Notes under the pieces: model-generated
Seen by the model: the letters and a program-made list of their open reading frames with translations, nothing else
The model's database searches: none
What the model was told of the DNA's origin: nothing
Part shown: positions 3,247 to 62,979 of the stretch, piece by piece
Layout of the letters: each line of letters starts with the position of its first letter
Position numbering within the stretch: position 1 is the first letter of the stretch
Origin: a bacterium
GTDB lineage: Bacteria > Patescibacteriota > Minisyncoccia > UBA6257 > JAGOQP01
Direction of reading: 5' to 3'
Assembly (NCBI GenBank): GCA_021814695.1
Contig: JAKAHY010000006.1
Location: 49 to 64,048 of the forward strand
Length of the DNA stretch: 64,000 nucleotides
Made by a program: the position numbers and the translations under genes

Positions 3247-4158
3247 ATGGCAAATAGTCATGATGCGAAATGGAAAAAGTTTGAGAAGGTTGTATATGAT
3301 ATACAAAAAGAATTAGCTCCTGATTCTGAAGTTAAGCTAGATGACGCTATCACAGGAGAAGACTCTAAGGTATCTCGCCAAATTGATATCAGCATCCGCC
3401 GCAATATAGGACAATACTCAATTCTGATTGTTATCGATTGTAAGGACTATGGTGTGCCGATCGACGTAAAAGATCTTGGTGAATTTGCTACTCTAGTCAA
3501 AGACGTAAGAGCTCACAAGGGCGCAATGATTTCTAGCAAGGGTTTTACGCCAGCCGCAGTAAGCTTGGCAAAAGCTCGTGGCATTGACACATTCACATTG
3601 ATAGATACTGAAAGCGTTGATTGGAAGGCATATGCCACAATTCCTGTATTATTGAGGAGTACTAATCTAAAAAGTTTTAGAGTAATATACAAAAACTTCC
3701 AAATTCTTCCTAGGGAGATTGTAGTCGCCGACCACAAGAAGCTGAAATTATATTCTCAGCAGCAAAAATTTATAGGCACCATTGGACGCTTAGTGCTTGA
3801 TAAATGGAATAATAAAGAAATAGAACATGCGTCTGGAGAGCACGAGGTTTTATTATCGGAAAATATTATGTTGGAAATAAATAGTCAGAAGTTTGGGCCG
3901 TTAGATGTAGCTGCTGTTGTATTGGTAGAGGAACACACTTATTTTAGCGATCTCCCGGTACACCTGAAAGGTTTTCATGATGCGCAAAAAGGTGGTGTAA
4001 TTACTAAATCGTTCGAAACGGACAAAATTTGGCCGGCAAAGATAGAGCAGGGATTAGTAGAGGGTTGGAGAGAGCTTAAGAATCCTACCGAACTATCGAT
4101 ACAACCACTTTTAGAATTCTATGTGTATGATTCCTATCCTAAAGAGGAGGTGGAGTAA
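3247..4158 (+). CDS. Mrr-like (restriction endonuclease, PD-(D/E)xK) N-terminal domain protein with unknown C-terminal domain; putative effector of the RT system
   Basis: ILIVIDCKDYGVPIDVKDLGEFATLVKDVRAHKGAMISSKGFTPAAVSLAKARGIDTFTLID matches the Mrr_cat pattern (QCK...V...F.G....KG.F.T.S.FT..A...A...I.LIDG). Confidence 0.65.
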   Translation: MANSHDAKWKKFEKVVYDIQKELAPDSEVKLDDAITGEDSKVSRQIDISIRRNIGQYSILIVIDCKDYGVPIDVKDLGEFATLVKDVRAHKGAMISSKGFTPAAVSLAKARGIDTFTLIDTESVDWKAYATIPVLLRSTNLKSFRVIYKNFQILPREIVVADHKKLKLYSQQQKFIGTIGRLVLDKWNNKEIEHASGEHEVLLSENIMLEINSQKFGPLDVAAVVLVEEHTYFSDLPVHLKGFHDAQKGGVITKSFETDKIWPAKIEQGLVEGWRELKNPTELSIQPLLEFYVYDSYPKEEVE

Positions 4159-4240
4159 AAAATGTAGATTATACTTTATAAATATGCTACGAAGGCATTA
4201 ATTTTCTTACCAACCCAACCATTTTTTGTAACAATTTTAT

Positions 4241-4723: not shown

Positions 4724-4902
4724 GTTGTTATAGGATTGAGACTTTGCATCTACCTGCGTGTTGCGTCCTTTTCATCAAAATAGGTTCTAATCTGTTCCAA
4801 TCCCTTCCGCAGTAAGAACTTTTTATCGGGAGACCCGAGTGATATCGACAAAGATGTGGTCTGTTCGCCTAAGCATTTCAAAAATATCTAAACACTTAGA
4901 AA

Positions 4903-5646
4903 ATGGAATTCAATCAAAACAACAACATTGTTAGACTTTGTCTTCGGGGGATAGGCATGGAACAGAAAGATAAACCAGAAGAAGCAAGCAGATTGTTTCT
5001 TCAGGCCTGGGATGAAGCGACAAACGATTTTGAAAAATTTATTTCAGCTAATTATATAGCCCGACATCAGAAAAATGCTTCCGACAAATTACAATGGCTC
5101 GAAACGGATTTACGGCTTGCATTAAAAATCAACGACGACACAGTAAAGAGTGCTTTTCCTCCTCTCTATTTAAATATCGCCAAATGCTATGAGGAGTTGG
5201 GCAATTTTGATAGAGCGAAAGAGAATTATGCATTGGCAACTTCGTTTAAGGACGAGCCCACAGATAAAGGCCCTTTTTATCACGGGACGAAAGCGGACTT
5301 GAAAGTTGGAGATTTGCTGGCGGCAGGAGGCGATTCTAATTACAAATCCGAAATCAAAATGAACCATATTTATTTTACCGCTCTTGTTCATGGGGCGGGA
5401 CTAGCCGCTTCGTTGGCAAAAGGCGATGGACGAGAACGTGTTTATATCGTTGAGCCAACAGGAGGTTTTGAAAATGATCCTAACGTTACAAACAACTACT
5501 TTCCCGGCAATCCGACGCGCTCGTATCGCTCTCAAGCGCCATTGAAAATCGTCGGCGAAGTAACCAATTGGATGAAAATTACACCCGAGGAACTCCAAAA
5601 ATGGCGGGAAAAGTTAGCTAACAATAAAGGAGAAATTATAAATTAA
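4903..5646 (+). CDS. TPR-like N-terminal domain fused to Arr-family (rifampin ADP-ribosyltransferase-like) domain
   Basis: C-terminal half FYHGTKADLKVGDLL...SNY...HIYFTA...RVYIVEPTGGFENDPNVTNNYFPGNPTRSYRSQAPLKIVGEV is near-collinear with Arr-2 (FYHGTKA..GDLL, IVEPTGPFEDDPNLT, FPGNPTQSYR, PLRIVG). Confidence 0.7.
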   Translation: MEFNQNNNIVRLCLRGIGMEQKDKPEEASRLFLQAWDEATNDFEKFISANYIARHQKNASDKLQWLETDLRLALKINDDTVKSAFPPLYLNIAKCYEELGNFDRAKENYALATSFKDEPTDKGPFYHGTKADLKVGDLLAAGGDSNYKSEIKMNHIYFTALVHGAGLAASLAKGDGRERVYIVEPTGGFENDPNVTNNYFPGNPTRSYRSQAPLKIVGEVTNWMKITPEELQKWREKLANNKGEIIN

Positions 5647-5693
5647 TTTTTGAAATGCCATTGACCGAATCAGGATTCTAACCGAGATTTGAA

Positions 5694-5725
5694 ACAAAAA
5701 TCCGCAAATAGCGGAATTTTTGTTT
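5694..5725. terminator. Bidirectional hairpin between convergent genes
   Basis: caaaaatccgcaaatagcggaatttttg. Confidence 0.4.
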
Positions 5726-7983: not shown

Positions 7984-9504
7984 ATGTCTTCTAATAAAGC
8001 CCAAAACGCGGGGCAGGCTCCGCTTAATAACCCGACTCAAAAACCGCTATCTGTCGGAGGCAATACCGGCGCCCTTAAGGCGCGCCCGCCGATTGTGGTG
8101 GTAATGGGCCACGTTGACCATGGCAAAACCACTCTCTTGGATTACATTCGAAAAACGAAAGTAGCCGAACGTGAGGCGGGCGGAATCACCCAATCTATCG
8201 GTGCTTATGAAATAGAAAAAAATGGGCAGAAGATGACATTTATAGATACGCCCGGACACGAAGCGTTTACAAAAATGCGTCAGAGAGGAGCCCATGTTGC
8301 CGATATCGGGATTTTAGTTATCGGCGCCGATGATGGAGTTAAGCCGCAAACCGAAGAAGCGATAGCAATTTTGCAGAATTCGAACACTCCTTTTGCGGTC
8401 GCAATAAATAAAATAGACAAAAACAACGCCGATATTGAGAGAACAAAAAATGACCTGCTTAAACACGGCGTTCTTTTGGAGGGATTTGGAGGAAACATTT
8501 CATGGTGCGCGATATCGGCAAAGCAGGGAGAAGGCGTGGATGAGCTTTTGGATTTGGTTTTGTTAATGTGGCAGGTTGAAAATCTTACTTACAATCCATC
8601 CGTCCCGGCCAAGGGATTTATTATAGAAGCCAAAGTAGACAGCAGGAGAGGGGCCGCCGTTTCGGTAGTCGTTACCGACGGCATTATTCGTGAAGGTAAT
8701 GATATTGCGACGCCGACAGCCTGCGGAAAAATAAAAATGCTTGAAAATTTTTTGGGAAAAAGAGTTACGGAACTTGCTCCTTCCAGCCCGGCTCTTATTT
8801 TAGGATTTGAAAGCCTACCTTCCGTGGGGCAATCTTTCACTGCCGGAGATCTTGAACTTGAAATTGCTCCTAATTTGGCCCCGGGATTGAAACCGAAAAT
8901 GAATCTTAGCGAAACCGAAAAAGAAACCATGATGCCGGTTATGATTAAAGCAGACGTTTCCGGTTCTTTGGAAGCATTGGCGCATGTTATCGGAGCTTTA
9001 GAGATTGACGGGAAAAAATTCAAAATTGTTTCCGAGGAGGTCGGAGAAATTACCGATGGCGACATAAAAGATGCCAGCGCTACGGGGTCTATTGTTGTAG
9101 GATTCAATACAAAAATCATCAAATCGGCTGATAACTTAGCCAGAGGCCAGAATGTCAGAGTTGTAACTTCAAATATCATTTATAGAATTGTAGAGGCTCT
9201 CGAGGAGTCTATTAGAGCCATTGAGGGGGGTGAAAAGGGACCGACAATGGAAGTGCTTGCGATATTCAGCCAGAAAGGAAAAAAACAACTCGTCGGAGGG
9301 AAAATATTATCCGGAATATTTACGCTAAACCAAAAGGTTAATATATTAAGACAGGACAAAGCCGTCGGTGCCGGAAGAATAACCAGTTTGCAGCAGGGAA
9401 AGGCGGTTGTTAAAAAAGTTTCCGAAGGAGAATTCGGGCTTATGGTTGAATCTTCGGTCGTTGTCCAGGTGGGAGATGTGCTTGAAATAGAATATACCAA
9501 ATAA
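7984..9504 (+). CDS. infB: Translation initiation factor IF-2 (short form)
   Basis: GHVDHGKTTLLD, DTPGHEAF, NKIDK GTPase motifs and conserved C-terminal domains. Confidence 0.92.
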   Translation: MSSNKAQNAGQAPLNNPTQKPLSVGGNTGALKARPPIVVVMGHVDHGKTTLLDYIRKTKVAEREAGGITQSIGAYEIEKNGQKMTFIDTPGHEAFTKMRQRGAHVADIGILVIGADDGVKPQTEEAIAILQNSNTPFAVAINKIDKNNADIERTKNDLLKHGVLLEGFGGNISWCAISAKQGEGVDELLDLVLLMWQVENLTYNPSVPAKGFIIEAKVDSRRGAAVSVVVTDGIIREGNDIATPTACGKIKMLENFLGKRVTELAPSSPALILGFESLPSVGQSFTAGDLELEIAPNLAPGLKPKMNLSETEKETMMPVMIKADVSGSLEALAHVIGALEIDGKKFKIVSEEVGEITDGDIKDASATGSIVVGFNTKIIKSADNLARGQNVRVVTSNIIYRIVEALEESIRAIEGGEKGPTMEVLAIFSQKGKKQLVGGKILSGIFTLNQKVNILRQDKAVGAGRITSLQQGKAVVKKVSEGEFGLMVESSVVVQVGDVLEIEYTK

Positions 9505-9548
9505 TCAAACAGATATAAGTTGATATGGGTAGATATTAATGGAGATAA

Positions 9549-9887
9549 TTGAGTAATAGTTTATATCAATTTGTATTGCGAAGCATATATCAACTTTTAT
9601 CAATTTTTACTATGTCTCTTTACAGAAAACCGCGATTAGAAAGCCTTATTGCTCAGCTGCTTTCGGAACAAATTATCAGAACGATAGAATCCGACAAGTC
9701 TCTGATTACCATTACTTCGGTTGAAGTTGACGAGGATCACGACAAAACTATCGTGATTGTTTCTGTCTACCCCGACGAGCAAAAGAAAAACGTCTTAATA
9801 AAATTGAATGCGGAAGCTCCTTCTTTGGCGTGGCACTTGCTCAAAAAAATAAGGATTAAAAAAATACCGACGCTTGTGTTCAAGTAA
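9549..9887 (+). CDS. rbfA: Ribosome-binding factor A (TTG start with GGAG RBS; alternative ATG at 9612)
   Basis: RKPRLESLIAQLLSEQI...ITITSVEVDEDHDKTIVIVSVYPD collinear with RbfA. Confidence 0.7.
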   Translation: MSNSLYQFVLRSIYQLLSIFTMSLYRKPRLESLIAQLLSEQIIRTIESDKSLITITSVEVDEDHDKTIVIVSVYPDEQKKNVLIKLNAEAPSLAWHLLKKIRIKKIPTLVFK

Positions 9888-9911
9888 TTTTTTTGGAAAA
9901 ATAACAATATT

Positions 9912-27600: not shown

Positions 27601-28262
27601 TAGAAGACAGCGGATCACTGCGTATTATCAAAGTCAAAAATTCAAAGAAAACAGGGGTTAAGCCCAAAATAAAAATTGAAGAATATTCCGCCCCAAGAAA
27701 CGTTACGCTTTATGTTGAAGTCGGCCAGAAAGTTAAAAAAGGAGACCAGTTGTTTGAAGGAAGTGTAGACCTAAAAGAACTCTTCTTGCTTAAGGGAACG
27801 GATGTAACTCAGAAATATATAATTGACGAAGTTCAGAAAATTTACGTTTCTAACGGTAACGTTATCAACGACAAACATATAGAAATAATAGTGCGCCAGA
27901 TGTTTTCTCGCGTCATGGTTAAGGATTCGGGAGACGGAGAATACGTACCCGGACAAGTGCTTGAAAAAGGCCAGTTTCTTAAGGCAAATCGCCGCCTGAA
28001 GATTAAGGGCAAAATACCGGCCAAAGCCAAGCAGCTTCTCATGGGTATTACCAGAGCCGCACTTTCCACCGAGAGCTTCCTTTCAGCCGCATCTTTCCAG
28101 GAAACTGCACGTGTTTTGGTTAATGCTGCTACCGAAGGGAAAATTGACAGGCTGCGCGGACTTAAAGAGAACGTTATCATCGGGCGTCTGATTCCGGCAG
28201 GAACCGGATATAAAAAGAAGCTTTCAAAAAAAGAGCCTCAAACAGAGGAGGCCGGAGAATAA
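24663..28262 (+). CDS. rpoC: DNA-directed RNA polymerase beta' subunit
   Basis: Zn finger CxxC...CxxC, NADFDGDQMAVH catalytic motif. Confidence 0.95.
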   Translation: MDNTDFDYLRLKIPSPDEVLANSYGEVTKPETINYRTQRPEKDGLFSERIFGPTKDYKCYCGKFKGIRYKGTICDKCGVEVTRAVVRRERMGHIKLAAPVAHIWFLKTGNSKLGIFFDAPAHKLEKVVYYAAYIVTNVDEAKRKESLESLQSEFKSRKHDLKNDAKLLKSVEESFSKSKDFLSSLKVGSVLGEGEYFELARKFGDVFEAGTGAQALRKILEKINIKKEITETEKQISALVKRKDTTFEKKLLHKLRVLHAFSKNNIRPEWMVIMVLPVLPPDLRPMVALDGGRYASSDLNDLYRRVINRNNRLQKLMELRAPEIIVTNEKRMLQEAVDALIDNTARLGRQQVSSQNRPLKSLADILKGKQGRFRQNLLGKRVDYSARSVIVVGPDLKLNECGIPKKMALELFKPFVIKEILERGMAHNIKNANRLIEQGIPEVWEILEEVIANKSVLLNRAPTLHRLSIQAFKPVLIEDLAIRVPPMACAAFNADFDGDQMAVHLPLSKEAQDEAWNRMLSSKNIIKPSNGDPSATPAQDVALGSYYLTKIVGDTSDDSKIKVFSDKNEALKALEFGYIKINQPIRVGSQKSDITCVGRHIFNEILPKEFGFVNAVMNKKALSNLVARHIDTFGSENTWEFLDNVKKLGLQYAALSGITWSMYDLKIPGAKKEIVRNARKEVENITHQYESGFLDSSERRARIIRIWEKVKDEIAKTVPGALSDTNPIFYIIDSGAKGSWEQAVQTTGMKGLVANPQGETIELPVVSSYKEGLSVLEFFINSHGCRKGLTDTALKTAQAGYLTRRMVDVAQDIIIDSSDCKTQEGRIIDRASGEAYGYSFAQRIFGRILAQDVKEGNKIVAHAGDAIDRDLASHISKSGVTQIIVRSPITCKSLHGVCGKCYGLDLGRLENPKEGEAVGIIAAQSIGEPGTQLTLRTFHIGGVAGQDITLGLPRIEEVFEARPPKGRAALAAEDGIVQEIEDSGSLRIIKVKNSKKTGVKPKIKIEEYSAPRNVTLYVEVGQKVKKGDQLFEGSVDLKELFLLKGTDVTQKYIIDEVQKIYVSNGNVINDKHIEIIVRQMFSRVMVKDSGDGEYVPGQVLEKGQFLKANRRLKIKGKIPAKAKQLLMGITRAALSTESFLSAASFQETARVLVNAATEGKIDRLRGLKENVIIGRLIPAGTGYKKKLSKKEPQTEEAGE

Positions 28263-42742: not shown

Positions 42743-43039
42743 TTAATCGAAAATCGGCCGGAGTCTTTGACCCCGCACCTTTTCACTGCTTAGGCTGCGC
42801 CTGGTTATTATTTTCAGTTTAGAATAAACACGGCCATAAGATTTTAGATTTCTTTCCCTATCAATAACATCACCTTGTGAGACATAACCTTCTAGATAAA
42901 TAATTAACCATTTATCGCTTATTTTGGCATACATAGGCTTACCGCTGACATATCCTAATATTCCTCTCGAAACATCGTTTGTATAACCAATATGCAACTT
43001 GTCATAGATTTCATTTTTGAGAACATAAACATAATACAT
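42743..43039 (-). CDS. Small GIY-YIG nuclease (copy 1); the ORF reads through the downstream repeat
   Basis: MYYVYVLKNEIYDKLHIGYTNDVSRG...YLEGY GIY-YIG motif. Confidence 0.7.
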   Translation of the reverse strand: MYYVYVLKNEIYDKLHIGYTNDVSRGILGYVSGKPMYAKISDKWLIIYLEGYVSQGDVIDRERNLKSYGRVYSKLKIITRRSLSSEKVRGQRLRPIFD

Positions 43040-43074
43040 ACATAAATAACAAAGCAGTGGAAAGGTGCGGGATT
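42771..43074. mobile_element. GIY-YIG gene bracketed by inverted repeats ccccgcacctttt (42771-42783) and aaaggtgcgggatt (43061-43074)
   Basis: Repeat family read directly; the same repeat pair brackets the second GIY-YIG gene. Confidence 0.5.
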
Positions 43075-43111
43075 GACACAACCACCACTTTTCTAGTAGT
43101 ATCTTTCCATT

Positions 43112-43438
43112 ATGATAGTTAAAGAAATTGCCGAAAAAATAAAACCGGGGGCTTCAATAATAGTGGTTGAGCGCATTAAGGAAAAAGAAAAGGAGCGCCA
43201 GAGCCAATTTAAGGGAGTCGTGCTTTCGGTTAAGCATGGTAGACAGGGCGGGGCCACTTTTACGGTCAGGGCCATTTTGGGAGGAGTTGGGGTGGAAAAA
43301 ATATACCCATTTAATTCACCTAGTATTACTTCGGTTAAGGTTCTCTCAAGCCCCACAAAAGTAAAAAAATCAAAACTATATTTCTTGCGCAATGTGTCCA
43401 AGAAAAAATCTCGCCAGAAAATCGGAGTAACGGCGTAA
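43112..43438 (+). CDS. rplS: 50S ribosomal protein L19
   Basis: FKGVVLSVKHGRQGGATFTVR...GVGVEKIYPFNSP...KLYFLR. Confidence 0.85.
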   Translation: MIVKEIAEKIKPGASIIVVERIKEKEKERQSQFKGVVLSVKHGRQGGATFTVRAILGGVGVEKIYPFNSPSITSVKVLSSPTKVKKSKLYFLRNVSKKKSRQKIGVTA

Positions 43439-43495
43439 GACGCGGATTTATACGCCTGCCTGCCGGCAGGCAGGGATTAAACGGATTTATGCGAA

Positions 43496-43526
43496 TAAAA
43501 AAAGAGGGCACTGCCCTCTTTTTCAT
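43496..43526. terminator. Bidirectional terminator aaaaaaagagggcactgccctctttttcat
   Basis: Stem gagggca/tgccctc flanked by A and T runs. Confidence 0.55.
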
Positions 43527-43530
43527 TTTG

Positions 43531-43616
43531 TGCGCGGGAGAGGACTCGAACCTCCACGGGACGTAATGCCCGCTACCACCTCAAGGTAGTGCGTCTACCA
43601 GTTTCGCCACCCGCGC
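43531..43616 (-). tRNA. tRNA-Leu(GAG)
   Basis: Reverse complement gives acceptor gcgcggg/cccgcgc, anticodon loop ttGAGgt, long variable arm, T-loop ttcgagt. Confidence 0.8.
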
Positions 43617-43905
43617 ATTATTAACCAAATCTTGAGATATTTTGCCTTAATGGCGGCAAATAATCAATAGGAAAGTGATAAAAACGTCAGATTTTAGTAG
43701 CTTGACAGAATTATTATAGTATGCTAATATATGACCATAATCGGAGTGGAGGAGGAATTGTCCAAGTCCACAATCCGATCAGCACATTGACCGAGAGATC
43801 GTCAGCCGGCGAAAGTTGGCAAGCGATTTCTCACTATCACGTCCCGATTGGAGTCGGGACAGCCCTCCTACGTGCGGGAGCACTACGGAGGACAAGGGAG
43901 ACAAC

Positions 43906-44649
43906 ATGGCCAAGAAAGCGACCAAGCAGAACCCCGCAGTCAACCTGAAGGTGTACGTGAAGCTCGACCCCGAGGCGCAGGTGATGTTCAACCACCAGCG
44001 TCGCGACCAGGCCGTCAGCTTCCCCGCCGTGGTGGCGACCGTCGCGACCATGATCAAGGGCGGCAGCGACATCACCGGCGCGCAGGAGGACGACAAGTAC
44101 GTCGTCACCCTGGACGCCGGACAGCTCGCCGAGGTGTTCGCCGAGGCGCGCGAGTACCAGGCGACGCTCCCGGCCACCGTGGAGATCGCCAAGCAGGCGA
44201 TCTCGACCGCCGATCAGGCGATCGAGTTCGCTCGCAAGAACAACAGCGGGCTCGACCTGTCGCAGGCCGAGGCCAAGCTGAGCACGGCGCAGGCCATGCT
44301 CAAGAGGCTGGTGTTCGGCAAGAAGAGCGACGACTTCCGCGAGGTGGTGGAGACGGCGCACGATGCCGCCAACACCGCCAAGCAGGCCGTCGTCGACCTG
44401 CTCAAGGTCAAGGCCGCCGGCCTCGCCAAGGAGACCGACACGCTCGACGAGTTGTCGCTCGTCCTCTCCGACCTCCCCAGCGACCTCGACCAGGCCCGCA
44501 AGGCCTTGGTCGAGTTCGTCAAGACGGCTCGTACGCTCCGCGTCCCGGCCCGCCCGGCCAACACCAACAAGCCGAACGATGGCCACCTGCGCGAGCGCGT
44601 CGGAACCGGCGTGTTCGGCCGCACCGGCGGCTACACCGGCCGCAAGTAG
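43906..44649 (+). CDS. Hypothetical protein, ~65% GC (foreign), good GGAGGA RBS
   Basis: Strong GC3 codon bias in a 40% GC genome; all six frames are open, the other five taken as artefacts. Confidence 0.55.
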   Translation: MAKKATKQNPAVNLKVYVKLDPEAQVMFNHQRRDQAVSFPAVVATVATMIKGGSDITGAQEDDKYVVTLDAGQLAEVFAEAREYQATLPATVEIAKQAISTADQAIEFARKNNSGLDLSQAEAKLSTAQAMLKRLVFGKKSDDFREVVETAHDAANTAKQAVVDLLKVKAAGLAKETDTLDELSLVLSDLPSDLDQARKALVEFVKTARTLRVPARPANTNKPNDGHLRERVGTGVFGRTGGYTGRK

Positions 44650-44694
44650 GCCCTCTCACCCCTGACGAATCTTTCGTCAGGAACTCCAACAACC

Positions 44695-44742
44695 CGAACC
44701 TCAGGCAATCCCGCCTGAGGTTCTTACTTTTTTCCTGGGAGC
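44695..44742 (+). terminator. Rho-independent terminator gaacctcaggcaatcccgcctgaggttcttactttttt
   Basis: 11-bp stem plus T-tract. Confidence 0.6.
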
Positions 44743-44758
44743 ATAGCTCCAATCGCTG

Positions 44759-44775
44759 AAAGGTGCGGGATTTTT
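44759..44775 (+). repeat. Orphan copy of the AAAGGTGCGGGATTTTT repeat
   Basis: Identical to the right-hand repeats at 43061, 45807 and 47431. Confidence 0.6.
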
Positions 44776-44808
44776 ATTAAATACGGATTTATACGGATAC
44801 GAGAGTAT

Positions 44809-44837
44809 TTGACACAACAATGATTTTGGTATATTAT
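44809..44837 (+). promoter_or_regulatory. Sigma70-like promoter TTGACA-17-TATTAT
   Basis: ttgacacaacaatgattttggtatattat, preceded by direct repeat atacggatttatacggatac. Confidence 0.5.
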
Positions 44838-44857
44838 ATAGACAGTATATTCAAATA

Positions 44858-44921
44858 GTAGGAATGAGCTGACTAACCATATGAATCCGTGTTGCAATGT
44901 GAATAGTCAGCTCGTTCCTAC
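44858..44921 (+). promoter_or_regulatory. 18-bp-stem hairpin in the 5'UTR just upstream of the RBS of ORF 44948
   Basis: gtaggaatgagctgacta...tagtcagctcgttcctac. Confidence 0.5.
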
Positions 44922-44947
44922 AAAGAGCAGAAAGAAAGGAGAATGCG

Positions 44948-45718
44948 ATGTACGACGATAGGAGAGAGGTTAAAGACCCGATGTTCCAGTTTTTTCTGGA
45001 ACAGCAGCGCCACCAGGGTGCCGGATTTGGAATTATGTCCGAGATTTGCACCCTTTCCCGGGAACATCACCAGGCGGTTCTCAAACAGGACTGGCCGGGA
45101 GCTGATGAGCTCGAGGACAAGATGCGGGCCAAGTGGATGGCTTTGACCCAGAAGAACATCATGGGCCGGACCCACATCAAGATTGCCGAAATGTCGGCAA
45201 CCGAGATGCTGGAAGCGTTTTTTGTCCGGGAGGTGTTCTGGGAGATTGCTACAAATCGGACATCGAGTTTCAATCCTTCAGATTTCAAGAAGTACGCGGA
45301 GACATGGTCGGAAGCGTTCCAACTTCCGAAAGATTCTCCCATCGATTACCAGTGGATTATCGCCGGCTGGTTGGACGCCGCCAGTGAGATCTACAAGATG
45401 TTGGTGATTCTGATCAACAGCAGGTATTACTCGGATGGAGATAAATTGTCCATCTGGGAGAGCTACTGCGCGCTCCTCTCTGCTGTTCATGAGGCTTTTG
45501 CTCTCTACGAGCTGATCGCCTCCAGCGTCATCGACAACGGGCAGGGACGTGTGCCCTGGCCAATGACGTTTCGCGGCAAGATGCAAAAGCTCCAAAACCA
45601 CATTACCGAAACTCACGAAAGGATTCAGTATTATCGTGAGCGGACCGCGGACAGGGTGGATCGCGAGGTCCTCATGTCCAAGATCGAAGCCGTGATTGGT
45701 CTCCTTTCCCGCAAGTAA
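44948..45718 (+). CDS. Hypothetical protein (~52% GC)
   Basis: ORF with AAAGGAG RBS and downstream terminator ccgggttgcgaaagcaaccca-T7 at 45726-45750. Confidence 0.55.
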   Translation: MYDDRREVKDPMFQFFLEQQRHQGAGFGIMSEICTLSREHHQAVLKQDWPGADELEDKMRAKWMALTQKNIMGRTHIKIAEMSATEMLEAFFVREVFWEIATNRTSSFNPSDFKKYAETWSEAFQLPKDSPIDYQWIIAGWLDAASEIYKMLVILINSRYYSDGDKLSIWESYCALLSAVHEAFALYELIASSVIDNGQGRVPWPMTFRGKMQKLQNHITETHERIQYYRERTADRVDREVLMSKIEAVIGLLSRK

Positions 45719-45752
45719 GCGGGGCCGGGTTGCGAAAGCAACCCATTTTTTT

Positions 45753-45819
45753 ATCCCGCACCTTTAATTTTCAATTAAAACAGGACGAGTAAAACTCGAG
45801 CAAACTAAAGGTGCGGGAT
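45753..45819. mobile_element. Empty inverted-repeat pair atcccgcaccttt...(41 bp)...aaaggtgcgggat (miniature, gene-less element)
   Basis: Same repeats that bracket the GIY-YIG genes, here with a 41-bp spacer. Confidence 0.45.
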
Positions 45820-45860
45820 AATCCTCCGAAGCTTTATGCAAAGGAGGATTCATAGACCGT

Positions 45861-47060
45861 TTGCCTTTAGGTGATATTTTTCATAGAATAAAACTTACCT
45901 ACACCAGCTTTATGAAAAGAGAACACATTGTCGCCAAAGATCCGGACAGCGAAAAACTCCTTTCCGAACTCAAACAAAGGGAAGACACTAACGGGCTAAG
46001 AATGCGTCGGTTGATTGAACTTCCGGATTTATCCAGAAAAGAAAATTCTCCCATAAAATTTATAGTAGACAGGATTTTGGGGATCAAAGATTTTGAAAAT
46101 TTTGATATATTGGAATTTCCCGAAATTGTCAGTGTGCGGGACAATTTTGACTTGCTTAACGCTCCGGCCGACCACCCCAGCCGAAAAGAAACCGATACTT
46201 ATTATGTGGACAAAGACCATGTTTTAAGAACTCAAACGACCGTAATGTGGCCGTATTATCTCCAGCGGCCGGACACTTTGGATAAACTGAATAACGAAGG
46301 AGAGGTCGGCTTATTGAGCTATGGCAAGGTCTATAGAAAGGACGAAATAGACAGGAATCATTTTCCGATATTTCATCAGGTGGACGGACTTTATATTTGT
46401 AAAAAAGAGAAAAAGATTTTGGGAATTCCCGAATTGCAGGAAGTGCTTTCGGCTATTACTAAAGCTATCTACGGAGAATCGGTTGAATATAGATTTTTGG
46501 AAGACACATTTCCTTTCACGGATCCAAGCACTCAGATTGAAATTAAGGTGGGCGATGCATGGCTTGAAGTTGTCGGTGCCGGAGTTGTTCATACTCAAGT
46601 TTTAAAAAATTTGAATATTGACCCGGAAATTTACAACGGGTGGGCATTCGGTTTCGGGTTGGAACGCCTGGCAATGGTGAAAAACGGAATTTCCGATATC
46701 AGAGTTTTCTGGTCCGATGACCCAAGAATTACGAGCCAGTTTAAGGATATAAACAGTCAATATAAAGAAGTCAGCAAATTTCCGATGACTTACCGTGATA
46801 TTTCATTTGTTGTCAATAAAAATATAAGCCTCAACAATTATTACGAGATTGTCAGGGACTGTGCGGGCAACCTGGTTGAGGAAGTAAAGCTTTCGGACCA
46901 GTATGAAGACGTCATAAAATTCGGCGCGGATAAAATCAGTTATACATTCAGGATTGTTTATCGCTCTCCCGAAAGGACATTAACCAATGAAGAAGTTAAT
47001 CAGATTCAGGACAGGATTATTCAAAAAACAGCCCAGGAGTTGAATGCGACAATAAGGTAA
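45861..47060 (+). CDS. Monomeric (mitochondrial-type) phenylalanyl-tRNA synthetase: PheS catalytic core plus C-terminal FDX-ACB anticodon-binding domain
   Basis: Class II motifs (FPFTDPSTQIEI, WLEVVGAGVVHTQVL, GFGLERLAMVKNGISDIR) and C-terminal FPMTYRDISFVV...YTFRIVYRSPERTLTNEEVN resembling the PheT/mito-PheRS C-terminus. Confidence 0.75.
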   Translation: MPLGDIFHRIKLTYTSFMKREHIVAKDPDSEKLLSELKQREDTNGLRMRRLIELPDLSRKENSPIKFIVDRILGIKDFENFDILEFPEIVSVRDNFDLLNAPADHPSRKETDTYYVDKDHVLRTQTTVMWPYYLQRPDTLDKLNNEGEVGLLSYGKVYRKDEIDRNHFPIFHQVDGLYICKKEKKILGIPELQEVLSAITKAIYGESVEYRFLEDTFPFTDPSTQIEIKVGDAWLEVVGAGVVHTQVLKNLNIDPEIYNGWAFGFGLERLAMVKNGISDIRVFWSDDPRITSQFKDINSQYKEVSKFPMTYRDISFVVNKNISLNNYYEIVRDCAGNLVEEVKLSDQYEDVIKFGADKISYTFRIVYRSPERTLTNEEVNQIQDRIIQKTAQELNATIR

Positions 47061-47062
47061 AA

Positions 47063-47136
47063 TACCCGCACCTTTTTAATAGTGGGTCAATCATCAAAAT
47101 TGAAACAATAAGACATCCCACAAGTGCGGGATTTTT
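47063..47136. mobile_element. Second empty inverted-repeat pair tacccgcaccttttt...aagtgcgggattttt
   Basis: Read directly. Confidence 0.4.
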
Positions 47137-47407
47137 GTCCCGCACCTTTCAGCCACTGAAGGCTACGCCAGATCCTTCTTTTTAGATTTGAATAGGTTTT
47201 TCCATACGCCTTAAGTTGCTGCTCTCTATAGGAAGCATCGTATCGTGAGGTGTAGCCTTCAAAATAAACTAGAGACCATACATTGCTTCTTTTGGTGTAT
47301 ATCGATTTACCGCTATTATGTTCCGAAATTCTTTTAACTAAGTTATTTGTGTATCCTATATATACTTTGTTATCCAACTTATTTTTTAGAATATAAACAT
47401 AATACAT
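47087..47407 (-). CDS. Small GIY-YIG nuclease (copy 2, ~45% identical to copy 1)
   Basis: MYYVYILKNKLDNKVYIGYTNNLVKRISEHN...YFEGY. Confidence 0.7.
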   Translation of the reverse strand: MYYVYILKNKLDNKVYIGYTNNLVKRISEHNSGKSIYTKRSNVWSLVYFEGYTSRYDASYREQQLKAYGKTYSNLKRRIWRSLQWLKGAGQKSRTCGMSYCFNFDD

Positions 47408-47447
47408 ATTATTATAATAACACGTAGCCGAAAGGTGCGGGATTTTT
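47138..47447. mobile_element. GIY-YIG gene 2 bracketed by tcccgcaccttt (47138-47149) and aaaggtgcgggattttt (47431-47447)
   Basis: Same architecture as the 42771-43074 element. Confidence 0.5.
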
Positions 47448-47499
47448 GTTTATTAGCCAATTTGCTATTATGGGTAGTAAGTAATTAATATAAAATTAT

Positions 47500-59991: not shown

Positions 59992-61446
59992 ATGAAAAGG
60001 ACTTTAGTATCGGACATAACTCAAAAAACCCTTTTAAGACGCTCTGGCAAAAGTGACCAGAGGGTCAATTTGCACAACCAAAAAGTAATAACCGTCCCCG
60101 TCAAAAAGGTTCTGGTTTCGTTGATATTGTCGTTGGCTATCTTTTCTTTCCTTCTTGGCGCAGCCAATGCCCCAATAAGTACCGGTTATCTTTTGGCGGC
60201 TTCGAATGTCGATACTCAAAGAGCGGCTTATGAGGCGCAATTGCAGGATTTGGAAAATCAGATTGCTCAGGATGAGCAGACAATTGCCCAATACAGTAAA
60301 CAAGGCAAGTCGCTTCAGTCGGAAATAAATAAGCTGAATGCCAAAATTGTCCAACTTAATCTTCAGATTAAAGCTATTACCTTGACCCTTAACAGTTTAA
60401 GCCAGGAGATTGATGATACCAAAACAAAAATCTCTCAGACAGAAGGCGATATTACCAAACAAAAGGATTATCTTTCCGCTACTCTTCAGAGCGTTTATGC
60501 CAGCGATAACACAAGTCCGATGGAAATGATGCTGGCCAACCCCAAACTTTCGGATTTTTTTCTTGATGTAAATAACCTGTTGGCCCTGCAAGATGAAGTT
60601 AGAACTACTCTGGAAAACATAGTCCAATTGAAAAGCCAGTTGATTGACCAGAAAGAAACTCTGGCCTCACAGTACGGCGATGCCCAGCAGTTGAAAGCGT
60701 ATCAATTAGCCCAGCAGCAGTCCGCAAAACAAACAGAGACCGATAAAAAAAGCCTGCTTCAGGTTACCAAGGGGCAGCAGTCAAAGTATGAACAATTGGT
60801 TGCCAGCAAACAAAAAACTGCAGCTCAAATCAGAAGCCAATTATTTGAACTTCTGGGTGGAGGAGAGCTTCAATTTGGTGAGGCCTATCGTTTGGCAAAA
60901 ATCGCCCAAGATGCAACGGGAGTTAGAGCTGCTTTAATTCTTGCTGTACTGGATAGGGAGTCGGCTCTCGGGAGAAACGTCGGTAAATGTAAATATAACA
61001 TCAACCCTTACTATCCGACAAAAGCCAGCAATCCGACCACGATGAATCCTAAGCGTGACATTCCTGTTTTTCTCCAGATTGTCCAGTCGCTGAATATCAA
61101 TCCCGACACGGTTACTGTCTCCTGCCCTATTCCACAGGACGGAGCTTACGGCGGAGGCATGGGCCCGGCGCAATTCATTCCTTCGACGTGGAATCTATAT
61201 GCCGATAAAATCGCTTCTTTGAGCGGACACAATCCGCCATCGCCCTGGAATAATCTGGATGCGTTTGTAGCAACCGCTCTTTATCTGAAAGATGCGGGCG
61301 CGACCGGTTCTCTTTACAATGAAAAAGTTGCGGCCGCCAAATACTATGCCGGAGGAAACTGGAAATATTATATAAATACTTACGGAGCGGCGGTTATCGC
61401 CAAAGCCAGCGATTTTCAGGATGATATAAATGTGCTAATCGGGTAA
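59992..61446 (+). CDS. Secreted coiled-coil protein with C-terminal MltB/Slt-like lytic transglycosylase domain
   Basis: N-terminal TM, long Q/L heptads, GPAQFIPSTW motif. Confidence 0.65.
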   Translation: MKRTLVSDITQKTLLRRSGKSDQRVNLHNQKVITVPVKKVLVSLILSLAIFSFLLGAANAPISTGYLLAASNVDTQRAAYEAQLQDLENQIAQDEQTIAQYSKQGKSLQSEINKLNAKIVQLNLQIKAITLTLNSLSQEIDDTKTKISQTEGDITKQKDYLSATLQSVYASDNTSPMEMMLANPKLSDFFLDVNNLLALQDEVRTTLENIVQLKSQLIDQKETLASQYGDAQQLKAYQLAQQQSAKQTETDKKSLLQVTKGQQSKYEQLVASKQKTAAQIRSQLFELLGGGELQFGEAYRLAKIAQDATGVRAALILAVLDRESALGRNVGKCKYNINPYYPTKASNPTTMNPKRDIPVFLQIVQSLNINPDTVTVSCPIPQDGAYGGGMGPAQFIPSTWNLYADKIASLSGHNPPSPWNNLDAFVATALYLKDAGATGSLYNEKVAAAKYYAGGNWKYYINTYGAAVIAKASDFQDDINVLIG

Positions 61447-61455
61447 AATAAAAAT

Positions 61456-62979
61456 ATGTTTGCTGGAAATAATCCGTTTACTCTCATAAAATTATTAGTT
61501 GCCACACCAATCGGAAAGATGCGGCGCATCTTCAAATGGGGCAAGTCGGCATCTTCCTTTACTCTCGTCGAACTCTTAGTTGTAATCGGTATCCTGGCCA
61601 TCCTTACCGCCGCAGTAGTAGTCGTTCTCAATCCCGCCCAGCTTATCGCCCAATCCCGTGATACCACCAGGTTTTCTGACATAGAAACTCTCAACAAAGC
61701 CCTCTCTTTATATCAAACCGATGGAGGCTCTTCTTTTGGCACATCCACTACCGTCTATGTCTCTATTCCCGACACTTCTACCTCCTGTGCCAACTTAGGT
61801 CTAGCTACTCTTCCTTCCGGATGGACTTATGCCTGTGTCACATCTGCCAATCTTCAAAAAACAGACGGTACCGGTTGGATTCCGGTCAATTTCAGTTCCG
61901 TTTCCACCGGCTCTCCCTTGAGTTCTTTACCCACCGATCCCATCAATGCCACCTCCACCAACAATTTCTATACCTACATTACTTCCGGTTCCAACTGGAC
62001 TGTTTCAGCTCAAACCCTTGAATCCACCAAATATGCTTATCGTGCCCAAACCGATGGAGGCACTTCTGCCACCGCTTATGAAGTCGGAAGCAGCTTAACC
62101 CTCTCTCCTTACATCTATCCTTCCAACTGGGTCAAGGTTCCCGGTAACTCTACCTTTGGCACCTCTGACTTCTGGGTTATGAAATATGATGCCAAATGTA
62201 TCCAGGCCTCAAACAGCACTCCTCTGACTGCTCCAGATACCGGATACCATACTTATTCCAATTCTTCTCAACCCTGTGTCGGACCCAATTACTACATCGC
62301 TTCTGCTCCAGGAGGATATCCGATAGCTAATATCTCTCATACCGATGCTCTGACTTATTGTGCTTCCATCGGAGCTCATCTTTTGACCAATGATGAATAT
62401 ATGACTATCGCCACCAACGCCATAAATCAAAACTCCAACTGGTCATCTGGAACTGTTGGAACCGGATATATCTATTCGGGGCATAACGACAATACTCCAC
62501 CCAATGCTCTAACTGCCGACTCCAACGATTCCAACGGTTATTCAGGAGAGACCAATACCGGAGGCAACCAAAGAAGAACTCTTACTCTCTCCAACGGCTC
62601 TGTTGTCTGGGATATGGCTGGAAATGTCTGGGAGCATGTTCAGCGAAGCGTAAATAACATTGGTGATCTTTCCACTACAATGACCGTTCCCGCCTGTACC
62701 GGAGGGACGGCAACCTGGCAATGGTGCGAGTTTCCCAATGTCTCCGCCTGGACATCCGATGTTGTTCAATCCAAAGTCGCCCCTCCTAATTCTTCCTGGA
62801 ACTCATCTCAAGGAGTTGGACAAGTGTTGACTTATGGTACCGGAGGAAATCAAGGGACAACCGCTTTCATTCGCGGCGCGGGTTGGGGCAACGGCTCTAG
62901 TGCCGGGGCGTTCGCGCTCCACTTGAGGTGGGTCACGGGCAGCGCAGACTCCTCTGTCGGGTTTCGTTGCTCTCGGTAG
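61456..62979 (+). CDS. DGR target: pilin-like N-terminus plus C-terminal C-type-lectin/FGE-fold variable domain (likely true start MRRIFKWGKSASS-FTLVELL at 61522)
   Basis: Prepilin-like SSFTLVELLVVIGILAIL; C-terminus FIRGAGWGNGSSAGAFALHLRWVTGSADSSVGFRCSR with GFRC ending typical of CLec variable regions. Confidence 0.7.
   Translation: MFAGNNPFTLIKLLVATPIGKMRRIFKWGKSASSFTLVELLVVIGILAILTAAVVVVLNPAQLIAQSRDTTRFSDIETLNKALSLYQTDGGSSFGTSTTVYVSIPDTSTSCANLGLATLPSGWTYACVTSANLQKTDGTGWIPVNFSSVSTGSPLSSLPTDPINATSTNNFYTYITSGSNWTVSAQTLESTKYAYRAQTDGGTSATAYEVGSSLTLSPYIYPSNWVKVPGNSTFGTSDFWVMKYDAKCIQASNSTPLTAPDTGYHTYSNSSQPCVGPNYYIASAPGGYPIANISHTDALTYCASIGAHLLTNDEYMTIATNAINQNSNWSSGTVGTGYIYSGHNDNTPPNALTADSNDSNGYSGETNTGGNQRRTLTLSNGSVVWDMAGNVWEHVQRSVNNIGDLSTTMTVPACTGGTATWQWCEFPNVSAWTSDVVQSKVAPPNSSWNSSQGVGQVLTYGTGGNQGTTAFIRGAGWGNGSSAGAFALHLRWVTGSADSSVGFRCSR
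62840..62976 (+). repeat. Putative DGR variable region (VR)
   Basis: GC-rich, adenine-depleted (~9% A over the last ~96 nt vs ~30% genome-wide) 3' end of the target gene. Confidence 0.5.

Follow-up and report, generated by a model that had tools for sequence, protein, structure and literature searches.

GIY-YIG nuclease genes in the loops of long hairpin repeats: a candidate selfish module in Patescibacteria and other bacteria

Introduction

Why should a short DNA motif recur again and again within less than 5 kb, around two very small nuclease genes, and be absent from the rest of a 64-kb sequence? Thousands of tiny stand-alone GIY-YIG proteins are annotated merely as 'putative endonuclease', and two such genes raise this question in a 64,000-nt stretch of DNA, referred to here as the window (positions 49 to 64,048 of contig JAKAHY010000006.1, assembly GCA_021814695.1). 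The window is a low-GC contig (~42% GC) of the candidate phyla radiation (CPR), Paceibacteria/Wolfebacteria-like and assigned to the Patescibacteriota. A preliminary description of the locus proposed a miniature mobile element, the ends of which would be formed by the repeated motif. Here, the arrangement is compared with homologous loci, with related genomes that lack it and with hairpins of the same kind that carry no gene. The explanation that we favour, although with about even confidence, is that the copies in the window are a selfish module composed of a nuclease and its cognate hairpin, in which the gene lies inside the hairpin.

A close published precedent is given by the Ssn nucleases and their NTS repeats (Chenal et al., Nat Commun 2025, PMC11893778), the first branch of these small proteins to be studied biochemically. 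SsnA of Neisseria meningitidis is a single-domain GIY-YIG protein of 94 aa (CDD family cd10448) and a site-specific nuclease that acts on single-stranded DNA (ssDNA) only, binding the NTS hairpin CGTCATTCCCGCGMAVGCGGGAATCYRG and cutting upstream of it. Ssn enzymes bind hairpin repeats that flank their own gene, and most homologues are flanked by SRM repeats. The same authors remarked on the insertion-sequence-like look of the NTS-ssnA-NTS unit and left open whether gene and repeats move together (PMC11893778).

Results

A paired motif brackets two GIY-YIG genes

Eight exact copies of AAAGGTGCGG were found in the window, all of them within 42773-47440 (Table 1), and the remaining 59 kb contained none. 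With up to one mismatch allowed there are 17 matches, compared with 4.3 +/- 2.2 in shuffled sequence, and this number was reached in 0 of 100 shuffles. A ninth copy, the right arm of E3 in Table 1, is degenerate through the loss of one G. When the two orientations are written on the plus strand as L (CCCGCACCTTT) and R (AAAGGTGCGGG), the copies follow one another as L42772, R43061, R44759, L45755, R45807, L47065, R'47122, L47139 and R47431. The L...R pairs are inverted repeats whose arms continue beyond the common core with letters that are specific to each element. Two pairs bracket GIY-YIG open reading frames (ORFs) on the minus strand and two more enclose just 31-45 bp. The resulting elements, E1 to E4, are distributed over the gene order RluA, hypothetical gene, E1, rplS, tRNA-Leu, two ORFs of odd GC content, E2, pheS, E3, E4 and gap. 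The motif had been described as repeated eightfold, in pairs of constant polarity around the two genes; exact copies and inverted repeats confirm this, and the same anatomy is seen in a second homologous locus (L008) and in 50 of 77 loci tested (below).

In both ORFs the core of the upstream arm begins 21-23 nt 5' of the ATG. The downstream arm forms part of the 3' end of the ORF, where it encodes KVRG in ORF 1 (42743-43039) and KGAG in ORF 2 (47087-47407); among homologues that are 45-80% identical, either such tails recur or a stop codon stands just 5' of the arm. Because the motif is read in two frames, and is placed after the stop codon in homologues, it is a DNA-level feature and not a peptide, in agreement with the preliminary description.

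Both products match the Pfam GIY-YIG domain and contain no further domain: ORF 47087-47407(-) scores 64.1 bits over residues 1-66 of 106 aa and ORF 42743-43039(-) 25.7 bits over residues 1-67 of 98 aa. The two proteins are 47% identical, close to the ~45% estimated earlier, and their homologues measure 83-100 aa. The conserved domain of the E4 protein covers ~85 aa; the rest of its ORF, the tail, runs on through the arm. The E1 ORF carries the substitutions Y16H, R26G, H30Y and A58V at positions with a conservation of at least 90% across the family; since near-invariant residues are replaced, the E1 nuclease is probably inactive. No NCBIfam family reached its cut-off for the window proteins (TIGR01453 gave 19 bits, with a cut-off of 56). 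Searches of plasmids by tblastn returned weak matches alone, of at most 41% identity and uninformative, and a 14-mer scan of viral contigs returned 120 single matches, which represent chance-level noise for a pattern this short.

Intact, mutated, truncated and gene-less copies in the window

Predicted ssDNA folds close the long-range stem of E1 in both the minimum-energy structure and the centroid, and the fold of E4 has its long-range stem too (z = -3.7). The gene-less E2 folds on its two strands with -19.5 and -20.4 kcal/mol (z = -6.8 and -7.0) and matched no Rfam family. The motif copy at 44759 had been regarded as an orphan. The copy is real, but it is not an orphan: the ~22 nt before it resemble the conserved 3' end of the gene, and it therefore represents the stub of a third element. 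Its letters align with the gene 3' ends of E1, E4 and L008 (conserved GCGTAGCC...), and the stub is complementary to the E4 left arm over 24 nt (88%). The gene-less pair that had been placed at 47063-47136 also stands only in part. Its left arm is real, whereas its right arm is degenerate and, in the predicted fold, pairs with the left arm of E4 rather than with its own partner. A terminator-like scan matches at this E3/E4 junction (47115-47132).

Short direct repeats flank both gene-bearing elements (Table 1). The right-hand TTGA of E1 is part of the -35 box TTGACA of the rplS promoter, and TTGA...TTGA flanks are shared with elements of L008, L130, L131, L133, L135, L156 and L208. Around E4 there is a family of direct repeats, in which the 13-mer GCGGGATTTTTGT occurs at both 47126-47138 and 47437-47449. 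A TATAAT box is located 3 nt 5' of the E4 ATG. Rfam scans over 41-49 kb and over the whole window found tRNAs alone (weak MIR8007 and L20-leader matches are noise), and no intron RNA was found in the window.

Table 1 Coordinates of the motif copies, elements and flanking features in the window.
Feature	Position	Strand	Description
Exact copies of AAAGGTGCGG	42773(-), 43061(+), 44759(+), 45756(-), 45807(+), 47066(-), 47140(-), 47431(+)		
Inverted repeat	42772-42791 / 43052-43071		20 nt, 95% complementary
Inverted repeat	45751-45770 / 45802-45821		20 nt, 95% complementary
Inverted repeat	47138-47156 / 47424-47442		19 nt, 89% complementary
TTGA	42767..42770		Direct repeat of 43073-43076; candidate 4-bp target duplication of E1
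E1	42771..43072	-	Hairpin arms 42771-42791 and 43052-43072; GIY-YIG ORF 42743-43039 (98 aa) in loop
rplS host promoter	43073..43102	+	TTGACA-18-TAGTAT, from promoter scan; directly abuts E1 right arm
Third-element stub	44735..44772	+	~22 nt like GIY-YIG gene 3' end, then right arm AAAGGTGCGGGATTTTT
E2, gene-less hairpin	45751..45821		20-nt arms; 31-nt interior with small CGAGT-AAA-ACTCG hairpin
E3, decayed gene-less pair	47063..47132		Left arm 47063-47076, ACCCGCACCTTTTT; right arm 47122-47132, AAG-TGCGGGAT, one base deleted
Compact hairpin	47124..47147		GTGCGGGA-TTTTTG-TCCCGCAC; arises at E3/E4 junction, from predicted fold
TTTTTG	47132..47137		Direct repeat of 47443-47448, flanking E4
E4	47138..47442	-	Arms 47138-47156 and 47424-47442; intact GIY-YIG ORF 47087-47407 (106 aa) in loop

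The same architecture in homologous loci

On another contig, a GtrA-like gene and murB are the neighbours of a homologue that is 80% identical (P0002, locus L008). Its upstream arm is ATCCCGCACCTTTTT and the arm over its stop codon AAAAGGTGCGGGGTTGACA, the same motif with the same polarity as in the window; across 16 kb the 11-nt core has no exact copy outside these two arms. A wider scan, with one genome per GTDB species, collected 80 loci, mostly from Patescibacteria and also from Omnitrophota, Planctomycetota, Bdellovibrionales and others. For each of 77 usable loci, the 120 nt that precede the ATG were compared with the region of the stop codon, and the best inverted repeat had to score at least 13 to be counted. 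Such a repeat, 13-30 nt long, brackets the gene in 50 of the 77 loci and in none after shuffling, and the anatomy is thus established as conserved in about 50 species. In most of the 50, only a few nt separate the upstream arm from the ATG, and the stop codon falls within the downstream arm. The outer end of the arm is conserved across loci as CCCCNCAC, or (A)CCCC[G/C/T]CAC(C), and the inner 5-20 nt are specific to each locus yet complementary, so that 953 of 985 arm positions pair. Mismatches in the arms show no strand bias (12 G.T and 12 A.C). This lack of a wobble bias speaks for a constraint at the level of DNA rather than RNA.

Some loci have further peculiarities. L252 carries two GIY-YIG homologues in tandem beside a gene-less motif hairpin (9131-9906). 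In L176 (3817-4260), a perfect palindrome of 26 nt, ACCCCGYCGCTCGCGAGCGACGGGGT, occurs twice around the GIY-YIG gene, each copy within an apparent anticodon arm of tRNA-Trp (GGTCTCC...CCAAAACC; ARAGORN predicts tRNA-Trp at 4140-4212). A metagenome-assembled genome (MAG) of the Phycisphaerae, L159, contains a canonical Neisseria-type NTS, CGTCATTCCCGCGAATGCGGGAATCCAT, at 4862-4889, ~110 nt upstream of a CPR-type GIY-YIG gene that is itself flanked by inverted repeats.

Empty sites, unrelated contexts and junction repeats

Three syntenic relatives of the window (L209, L211 and L213; PheS 77-79% identical) retain the order RluA...rplS...pheS-gap-ferric reductase-cytochrome b5. None of them has a GIY-YIG gene at the position of E1 or E4, and the 11-nt core is absent at up to one mismatch from the 13 kb scanned in each. 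The presence/absence comparison suggested in the preliminary description therefore yields orthologous sites without both the genes and the motif. The pheS-gap spacer spans 38 bp in L209 compared with 440 bp in the window, and is 38-60 bp long and motif-free in L209 and L211. L209 also has an rplS promoter (TTGACA-17-TATTAT) without any element, and the right arm of E1 borders on a matching -35 box in the window.

Elements that are closely related to each other are found in unrelated contexts. Five pairs (L136/L150, L170/L172, L130/L133, L154/L195 and L166/L170) are 82-90% identical over ~300 bp, and their flanks (1.2 kb on each side) show no blastn or tblastx similarity, save for one small tblastx match in L136/L150. 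Direct repeats across the element junctions are 3-11 nt long, and repeats of at least 6 nt were found in 18 of 50 loci, compared with 2.8 expected. Some elements border exactly on tRNA genes: on the 5' end of tRNA-Ala(CGC) in L151 and L173, with a copy of the first 7-10 nt of the tRNA upstream, and on the 3' end of tRNA-Pro(GGG) in L195. These tRNA-abutting elements occupy 4977-5346 in L151, 4269-4625 in L173, which belongs to a different phylum-level lineage from L151, and 4878-5276 in L195.

Gene-less hairpins and the stem of RNase P RNA

Additional copies of the locus's own 12-nt arm are present in 18 of the 50 loci, and gene-less L...R pairs with an interior of 10-130 nt match the arms of the local GIY-YIG gene in their outer 11-18 nt in L156, L178, L195, L140 and L166. 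Gene-less and gene-bearing arms thus match one another genome by genome. In metagenomes, the pattern CCCGCACCTTT-N(20-50)-AAAGGTGCGGG identified at least 120 loci with gene-less hairpins (126 pairs), where ~2 would be expected by chance according to our own estimate for a collection of this size. Recurrent interiors include ATTCAAG...CTTGAAT, ATGCCAAAGGCAT together with TTGACGAAGTCAA, and ...ATGCGAAGCAT.... GCGAAGC or its complement lies inside 9 of the 126 metagenome pairs listed; GAA-loop mini-hairpins of the d(GCGAAGC) type, with a C-GAA-G triloop, are very stable in DNA. A GIY-YIG gene is present in 11 of the 120 metagenome loci listed. A T-rich tail is missing from both strands in 82 of 121 gene-less pairs and present on one side in 39. 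As the gene is mostly absent nearby and T tails are mostly lacking, the hairpin is an independent, dispersed repeat rather than a terminator. Intrinsic terminators were also rejected on account of the loops, which are 20-50 or ~280 nt long instead of the 3-8 nt expected, and an integron attC site, suggested by the look of the 67-bp imperfect palindromes, was rejected since there is no GTTRRRY core and no integrase among the genes called around the region.

In three loci the gene-less pair forms part of a known RNA. The ORF-less L...R pair of L259, L323 and L289 makes up helix P3 of the bacterial RNase P RNA, with the R arm directly followed by GAGGAAAGUCCG; in L323 the stem is used again for P12 and for one more hairpin close to the 3' end. 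The 30-nt arms around a GIY-YIG ORF in the Uhrbacteria MAG L148 are this P3 stem as well; P4 follows the R arm, and the letters just before the L arm show complementarity to the 3' strands of both P1 and P2. Comparison of L148 with L259, L323 and L289 thus reveals the same P3 stem with and without an ORF in its loop. Regarding the genes themselves, the RNase P RNA genes of L323 (202-731) and L289 (666-1195) are ~160 nt longer than the Rfam model, and in both RNAs the stem CCCGCACCUUU/AAAGGUGCGGG builds P3, P12 and an additional hairpin that precedes the 3' strand of P1. The RNase P RNA gene of L148 extends over ~4946-5720; its GIY-YIG ORF occupies 5001-5264 in the P3 loop, and close to the 3' end of the gene there is another motif hairpin.

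The motif hairpin is also a component of a larger palindromic element of 140-320 nt, which has the composition TTAATGAGC - hairpin 1 - GCGAATTAAY - motif hairpin - RTAAGTTCGGAC - hairpin 3 - GTCCTCACTTA. It was observed in L231, L239 (~8330-8570), L248, L292, L294, L300, L327, L286, L218 and L224. Its junctions are conserved, hairpins 1 and 3 vary with compensating changes, and no Rfam family matched. A role as a cis-regulatory leader was rejected, the downstream genes being unrelated (yebC, glmS, ilvC, rpsT, dnaB). The outer flanks of the GIY-YIG loci L177 and L199 resemble those of this composite element.

Profile homology to Ssn-type nucleases

The proteobacterial Ssn-type family was collected with a probe sequence, and only the database sequences that it returned were used. 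Two members, from Comamonas and Microbulbifer, have canonical NTS-like CGTCATTCCGGCGAAAGCCGGAATCCAG hairpins beside the gene. Alignment of the CPR-type family with this NTS-flanked proteobacterial family by hhalign gave a probability of 99.1% (E = 4.5e-19, 80 columns), which establishes homology at the level of profiles. The Ssn-type hidden Markov model (HMM) scores window protein 2 with 39 bits, as compared with 11-15 bits for UPF0213 proteins. Conversely, the CPR-type HMM scores Ssn-type proteins with a median of 65 bits and 68-residue fragments of the UPF0213 proteins BH0048 and EF2693 with 52 and 40 bits. Among solved structures, these two are the nearest, with profile E-values of 1.5e-13 and 2.5e-9. 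The SRM pattern was searched as HGTCWYN(0-2)YYVSBRHN(0-5)WNVSBRGN(0-2)RNCYNB and finds canonical sites beside the proteobacterial genes of L215 and L216.

Neighbouring features of the rplS-pheS region

The preliminary description had linked the elements to genes of foreign GC content. This link does not hold, as relatives free of the motif also carry an ORF of 63% GC at the same place. Between rplS/tRNA-Leu and pheS, pairs of ORFs are found in the window (43906-44649 and 44948-45718), in L209 (4007-4750 and 5132-5803) and in L213 (4102-4878 and 5091-5921). In these three related low-GC genomes the first ORF of each pair has 63-68% GC and 247-258 aa, and the second 43-52% GC. The high-GC ORFs share no BLASTP similarity with one another, the second ORFs are distant homologues (24-27% identity), and the two ORFs of the window match no Pfam or NCBIfam family at cut-off. 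Judged from sequence, the interval looks like a hypervariable two-gene locus. An LAGLIDADG-like ORF follows rplS in L211 (4686-5336) and L213 (2888-3553; 69% identical) and is missing from the window and L209. Six independent assemblies of the same organism (L002, L003 and L004-L007) are all interrupted within pheS, at 750-1020 nt from the 3' end of the gene, which suggests strain heterogeneity or a repeat there.

The leader of ORF 44948-45718 contains a 25-nt inverted repeat (44858-44921, 84% complementary, 14-nt loop), upstream of which lies a near-consensus promoter, TTGACA-17-TATTAT, at 44809-44837. A related 10-mer, AAAGATGCGG (once AAAGTTGCGG), occurs in the window at 28087, 30235, 47869, 61288, 61324 and 61515, three of these within 61288-61525, and may be coding. 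The 12-mer CGGATTTATACG, present three times, was considered as an attachment (att) site and rejected, since its count is near chance for 7 kb.

Discussion

A nuclease gene inside its putative cognate hairpin

The module that we propose for the window is a hairpin with the 5' strand (A/T)YCCCGCACCTTT and the 3' strand AAAGGTGCGGGR(T/A), the full form of which holds a single-domain GIY-YIG gene of 85-100 aa in its loop. By homology and by analogy with Ssn and NTS, the nuclease would recognise its own hairpin in ssDNA and cut beside it, and the break, or a stalled replication fork, might then be repaired from a gene-bearing copy. Such repair could copy the ORF into gene-less hairpins, in other words homing into hairpin loops. 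The intact E4, the active-site-mutated E1, the stub at 44735-44772 and the gene-less E2 and E3 form the series of decay expected of such a module; intact, mutated, truncated and gene-less copies likewise coexist in the life cycle of homing endonuclease genes. Recognition of ssDNA, the site of cleavage and the route of copying are all inferred by analogy. The mobile character claimed in the preliminary description is retained in this proposal, given the empty sites, the unrelated contexts and the gene-less derivatives. The idea of classical transposon ends is not, since the repeats are better seen as both strands of a single stem that carries the gene in its loop.

For the CPR branch, the empty sites, the unrelated contexts, the ORF nested in P3 and the duplications at tRNA ends provide comparative evidence for insertion and decay of such units, and placing the gene within the loop of its presumed target makes for a simple geometry. 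If correct, this would represent a new kind of minimal selfish element, would explain a common repeat of CPR and Omnitrophota genomes and would supply new nuclease-hairpin pairs for ssDNA tools. A more far-reaching idea, which we put forward only tentatively and consider doubtful, is that the ~300-bp hairpin with its 85-aa GIY-YIG gene could be the smallest autonomous mobile element yet seen in bacteria, copying into matching hairpin loops (REP-like intergenic sites, RNase P helices and tRNA ends, in CPR and other phyla), and that proteobacterial Ssn/NTS systems might be its domesticated relatives.

Several observations weigh against a selfish module. GIY-YIG enzymes hydrolyse DNA without the ability to rejoin it, and any copying must thus rely on host repair, for which arms of 13-30 bp are short if repair is homologous. 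With only 77-79% identity in PheS, the relatives with empty sites may instead have lost the elements. Near-identical copies at separate places in one genome were not seen in the loci examined, and the repeated gene-less copies of L195 are in tandem. Covariation between protein and arm is weak (rho 0.17, matched by 35 of 2000 permutations). A motif unlinked to GIY-YIG genes had been named in the preliminary description as an outcome that would speak against a mobile element, and such a motif was found in part: 109 of the 120 metagenome loci listed have no GIY-YIG gene within a few kb, and some hairpins are RNase P helices. As some hairpins are functional RNA helices, the hairpin may also be older than the nuclease and serve functions independent of it. 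Regarding the nuclease, its action in the CPR-type subfamily is drawn from homology and analogy. Window protein 2 aligns with the NTS-flanked protein P0277, a stand-in for SsnA, with 39.3 bits and 29% identity over 70 residues, BLASTP gave no alignment between window protein 1 and P0277, and the SRM pattern is unmatched in the window and has 2 matches in 673 kb of CPR-type loci.

Alternative explanations

An Ssn-like nuclease could also be domesticated and non-mobile, cutting incoming or exposed ssDNA at dispersed hairpins to control transformation or recombination, a function that has been put forward for Neisseria, while the hairpins at its own gene are autoregulatory or remnants. The demonstrated role of SsnA and NTS in N. 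meningitidis (PMC11893778), the large excess of hairpins over nuclease genes and the clustering of the window hairpins in the variable rplS-pheS region all agree with such a host function. It is nevertheless unlikely in our view, because the orthologous sites of three relatives lack the gene, kindred elements occupy unrelated contexts with degenerate and truncated copies side by side, and one ORF is nested inside the P3 helix of rnpB and others are found, with target duplication, at the ends of tRNA genes. Slightly less likely again is a true transposon, of the cut-and-paste or the ssDNA peel-and-paste type, for which the arms would be terminal inverted repeats (TIRs), the GIY-YIG protein the transposase, TTGA and TTTTTG the target duplications, and the gene-less pairs miniature inverted-repeat transposable elements (MITEs). 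The TIR-like arms of 13-30 nt, the enrichment of short flanking direct repeats, the recurrence of TTGA around many elements with and without a gene (E1 and L008 among them), and the insertion-sequence-like architecture remarked upon by the Ssn authors (PMC11893778) would suit this view. Against it, the length of the direct repeats ranges between 3 and 11 nt, adjacent hairpin halves can account for many of them, the inner arm is free to vary and so suits a stem better than a protein-binding end, and dispersed identical copies within one genome are missing from the loci examined. Moreover, we know of no GIY-YIG transposase, and the fold is without strand-transfer chemistry.

A further alternative places the pairing in the transcript, where the arms could affect translation, stability or RNase III cleavage of the mRNA of a toxic nuclease, and where gene-less hairpins would be RNA modules such as P3. 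The position of the arms in most loci, a few nt before the ATG and over the stop codon, would fit, as would the genuine RNA helix in RNase P RNA and the TTGAC/GTTGA flanks, which could lengthen the stem by G.U pairs. We consider an RNA-level element improbable, even more so than a transposon, as the arm mismatches show no wobble bias, no Rfam family matches, and presence/absence and the unrelated contexts are left unexplained; in addition, the TATAAT box 3 nt before the ATG of E4 implies that the upstream arm is probably not co-transcribed with the gene. Finally, the two GIY-YIG genes could by chance have ordinary host palindromes nearby, for example bidirectional terminators or signals of the uptake type. 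Some arms do have A-runs before or T-runs after them (a T-rich tail on one side in 39 of 121), and the terminator scan picks 47115-47132. This explanation is largely refuted and very improbable, given the 82 of 121 pairs without a T tail, loops of 20-50 or 280 nt that are unlike those of terminators, locus-specific arms associated with the gene in 50 of 77 loci, and 59 kb of window without a copy.

Comparison with known systems

The selfish module proposed here shares single features with several known systems. Proteins of the UPF0213 group (BH0048, PDB 1zg2; EF2693, PDB 1ywl; the E. coli YhbQ type) have the same size and the same single domain, whereas no repeat association has been reported for these uncharacterised proteins. 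I-TevI, I-BmoI and the Seg proteins combine an N-terminal GIY-YIG domain with a C-terminal DNA-binding domain and are encoded in group I introns or by free-standing phage genes, in contrast to the single domain of ~85 aa found here. Homing endonuclease genes in the loops of structured RNAs (group I intron ORFs, rRNA intervening sequences and the CPR rRNA insertions of PMC11270868) resemble the present elements in the location of the ORF in a peripheral hairpin loop, as in P3 of L148, in presence/absence at conserved sites, in the decay series and in the GIY-YIG fold. The present elements differ from them by having neither an intron nor a DNA-binding domain, and most copies are intergenic.

Among repeat families, repetitive extragenic palindromic (REP) sequences and REPINs with their RAYT proteins (IS200/IS605 relatives), BIMEs and the Neisseria NIMEs likewise place a nuclease gene between inverted short hairpin repeats. 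Dispersed gene-less doublets and mosaics, genome-specific repeat variants and an ssDNA hairpin as the likely substrate are also alike in the REP/REPIN-RAYT system. The enzyme of the present elements is instead a GIY-YIG hydrolase and not an HUH (Y1) tyrosine transposase, and the copies in the window are few and clustered. With regard to traits of MITEs and TIR elements, inverted repeats are present and flanking direct repeats of 3-11 nt are enriched, and near-identical gene-less copies within a locus are tandem only (L195).

The likeness to the Ssn system is the closest. Both enzymes are single-domain GIY-YIG proteins of ~95 aa without a separate DNA-binding domain, both genes are embedded among hairpin-forming repeats that are also found without a gene, and the stem core TCCCGC/GCGGGA is common to NTS (ATTCCCGCG...CGCGGGAAT) and the CPR-type hairpin. 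The identity is only 25-29%, and with P0277 as a stand-in the alignments fall short of the definition of the Ssn family by BLASTP to N. meningitidis SsnA (E < 1e-10, at least 75% cover; PMC11893778). Because profile homology is found while BLASTP and the SRM pattern fail, the element is classified as Ssn/NTS-like in action, and membership of the clade is not claimed. The geometry differs as well: here the gene is in the loop of one long stem, whereas the proteobacterial gene of L216 has a complete small hairpin on each side, in direct orientation. A GIY-YIG gene within such a hairpin loop was not described in the literature that our searches returned. The hosts are CPR bacteria, Omnitrophota and similar groups, while the Ssn paper (PMC11893778) is silent on CPR bacteria, and to the Ssn system the present comparison adds evidence of insertion and loss.

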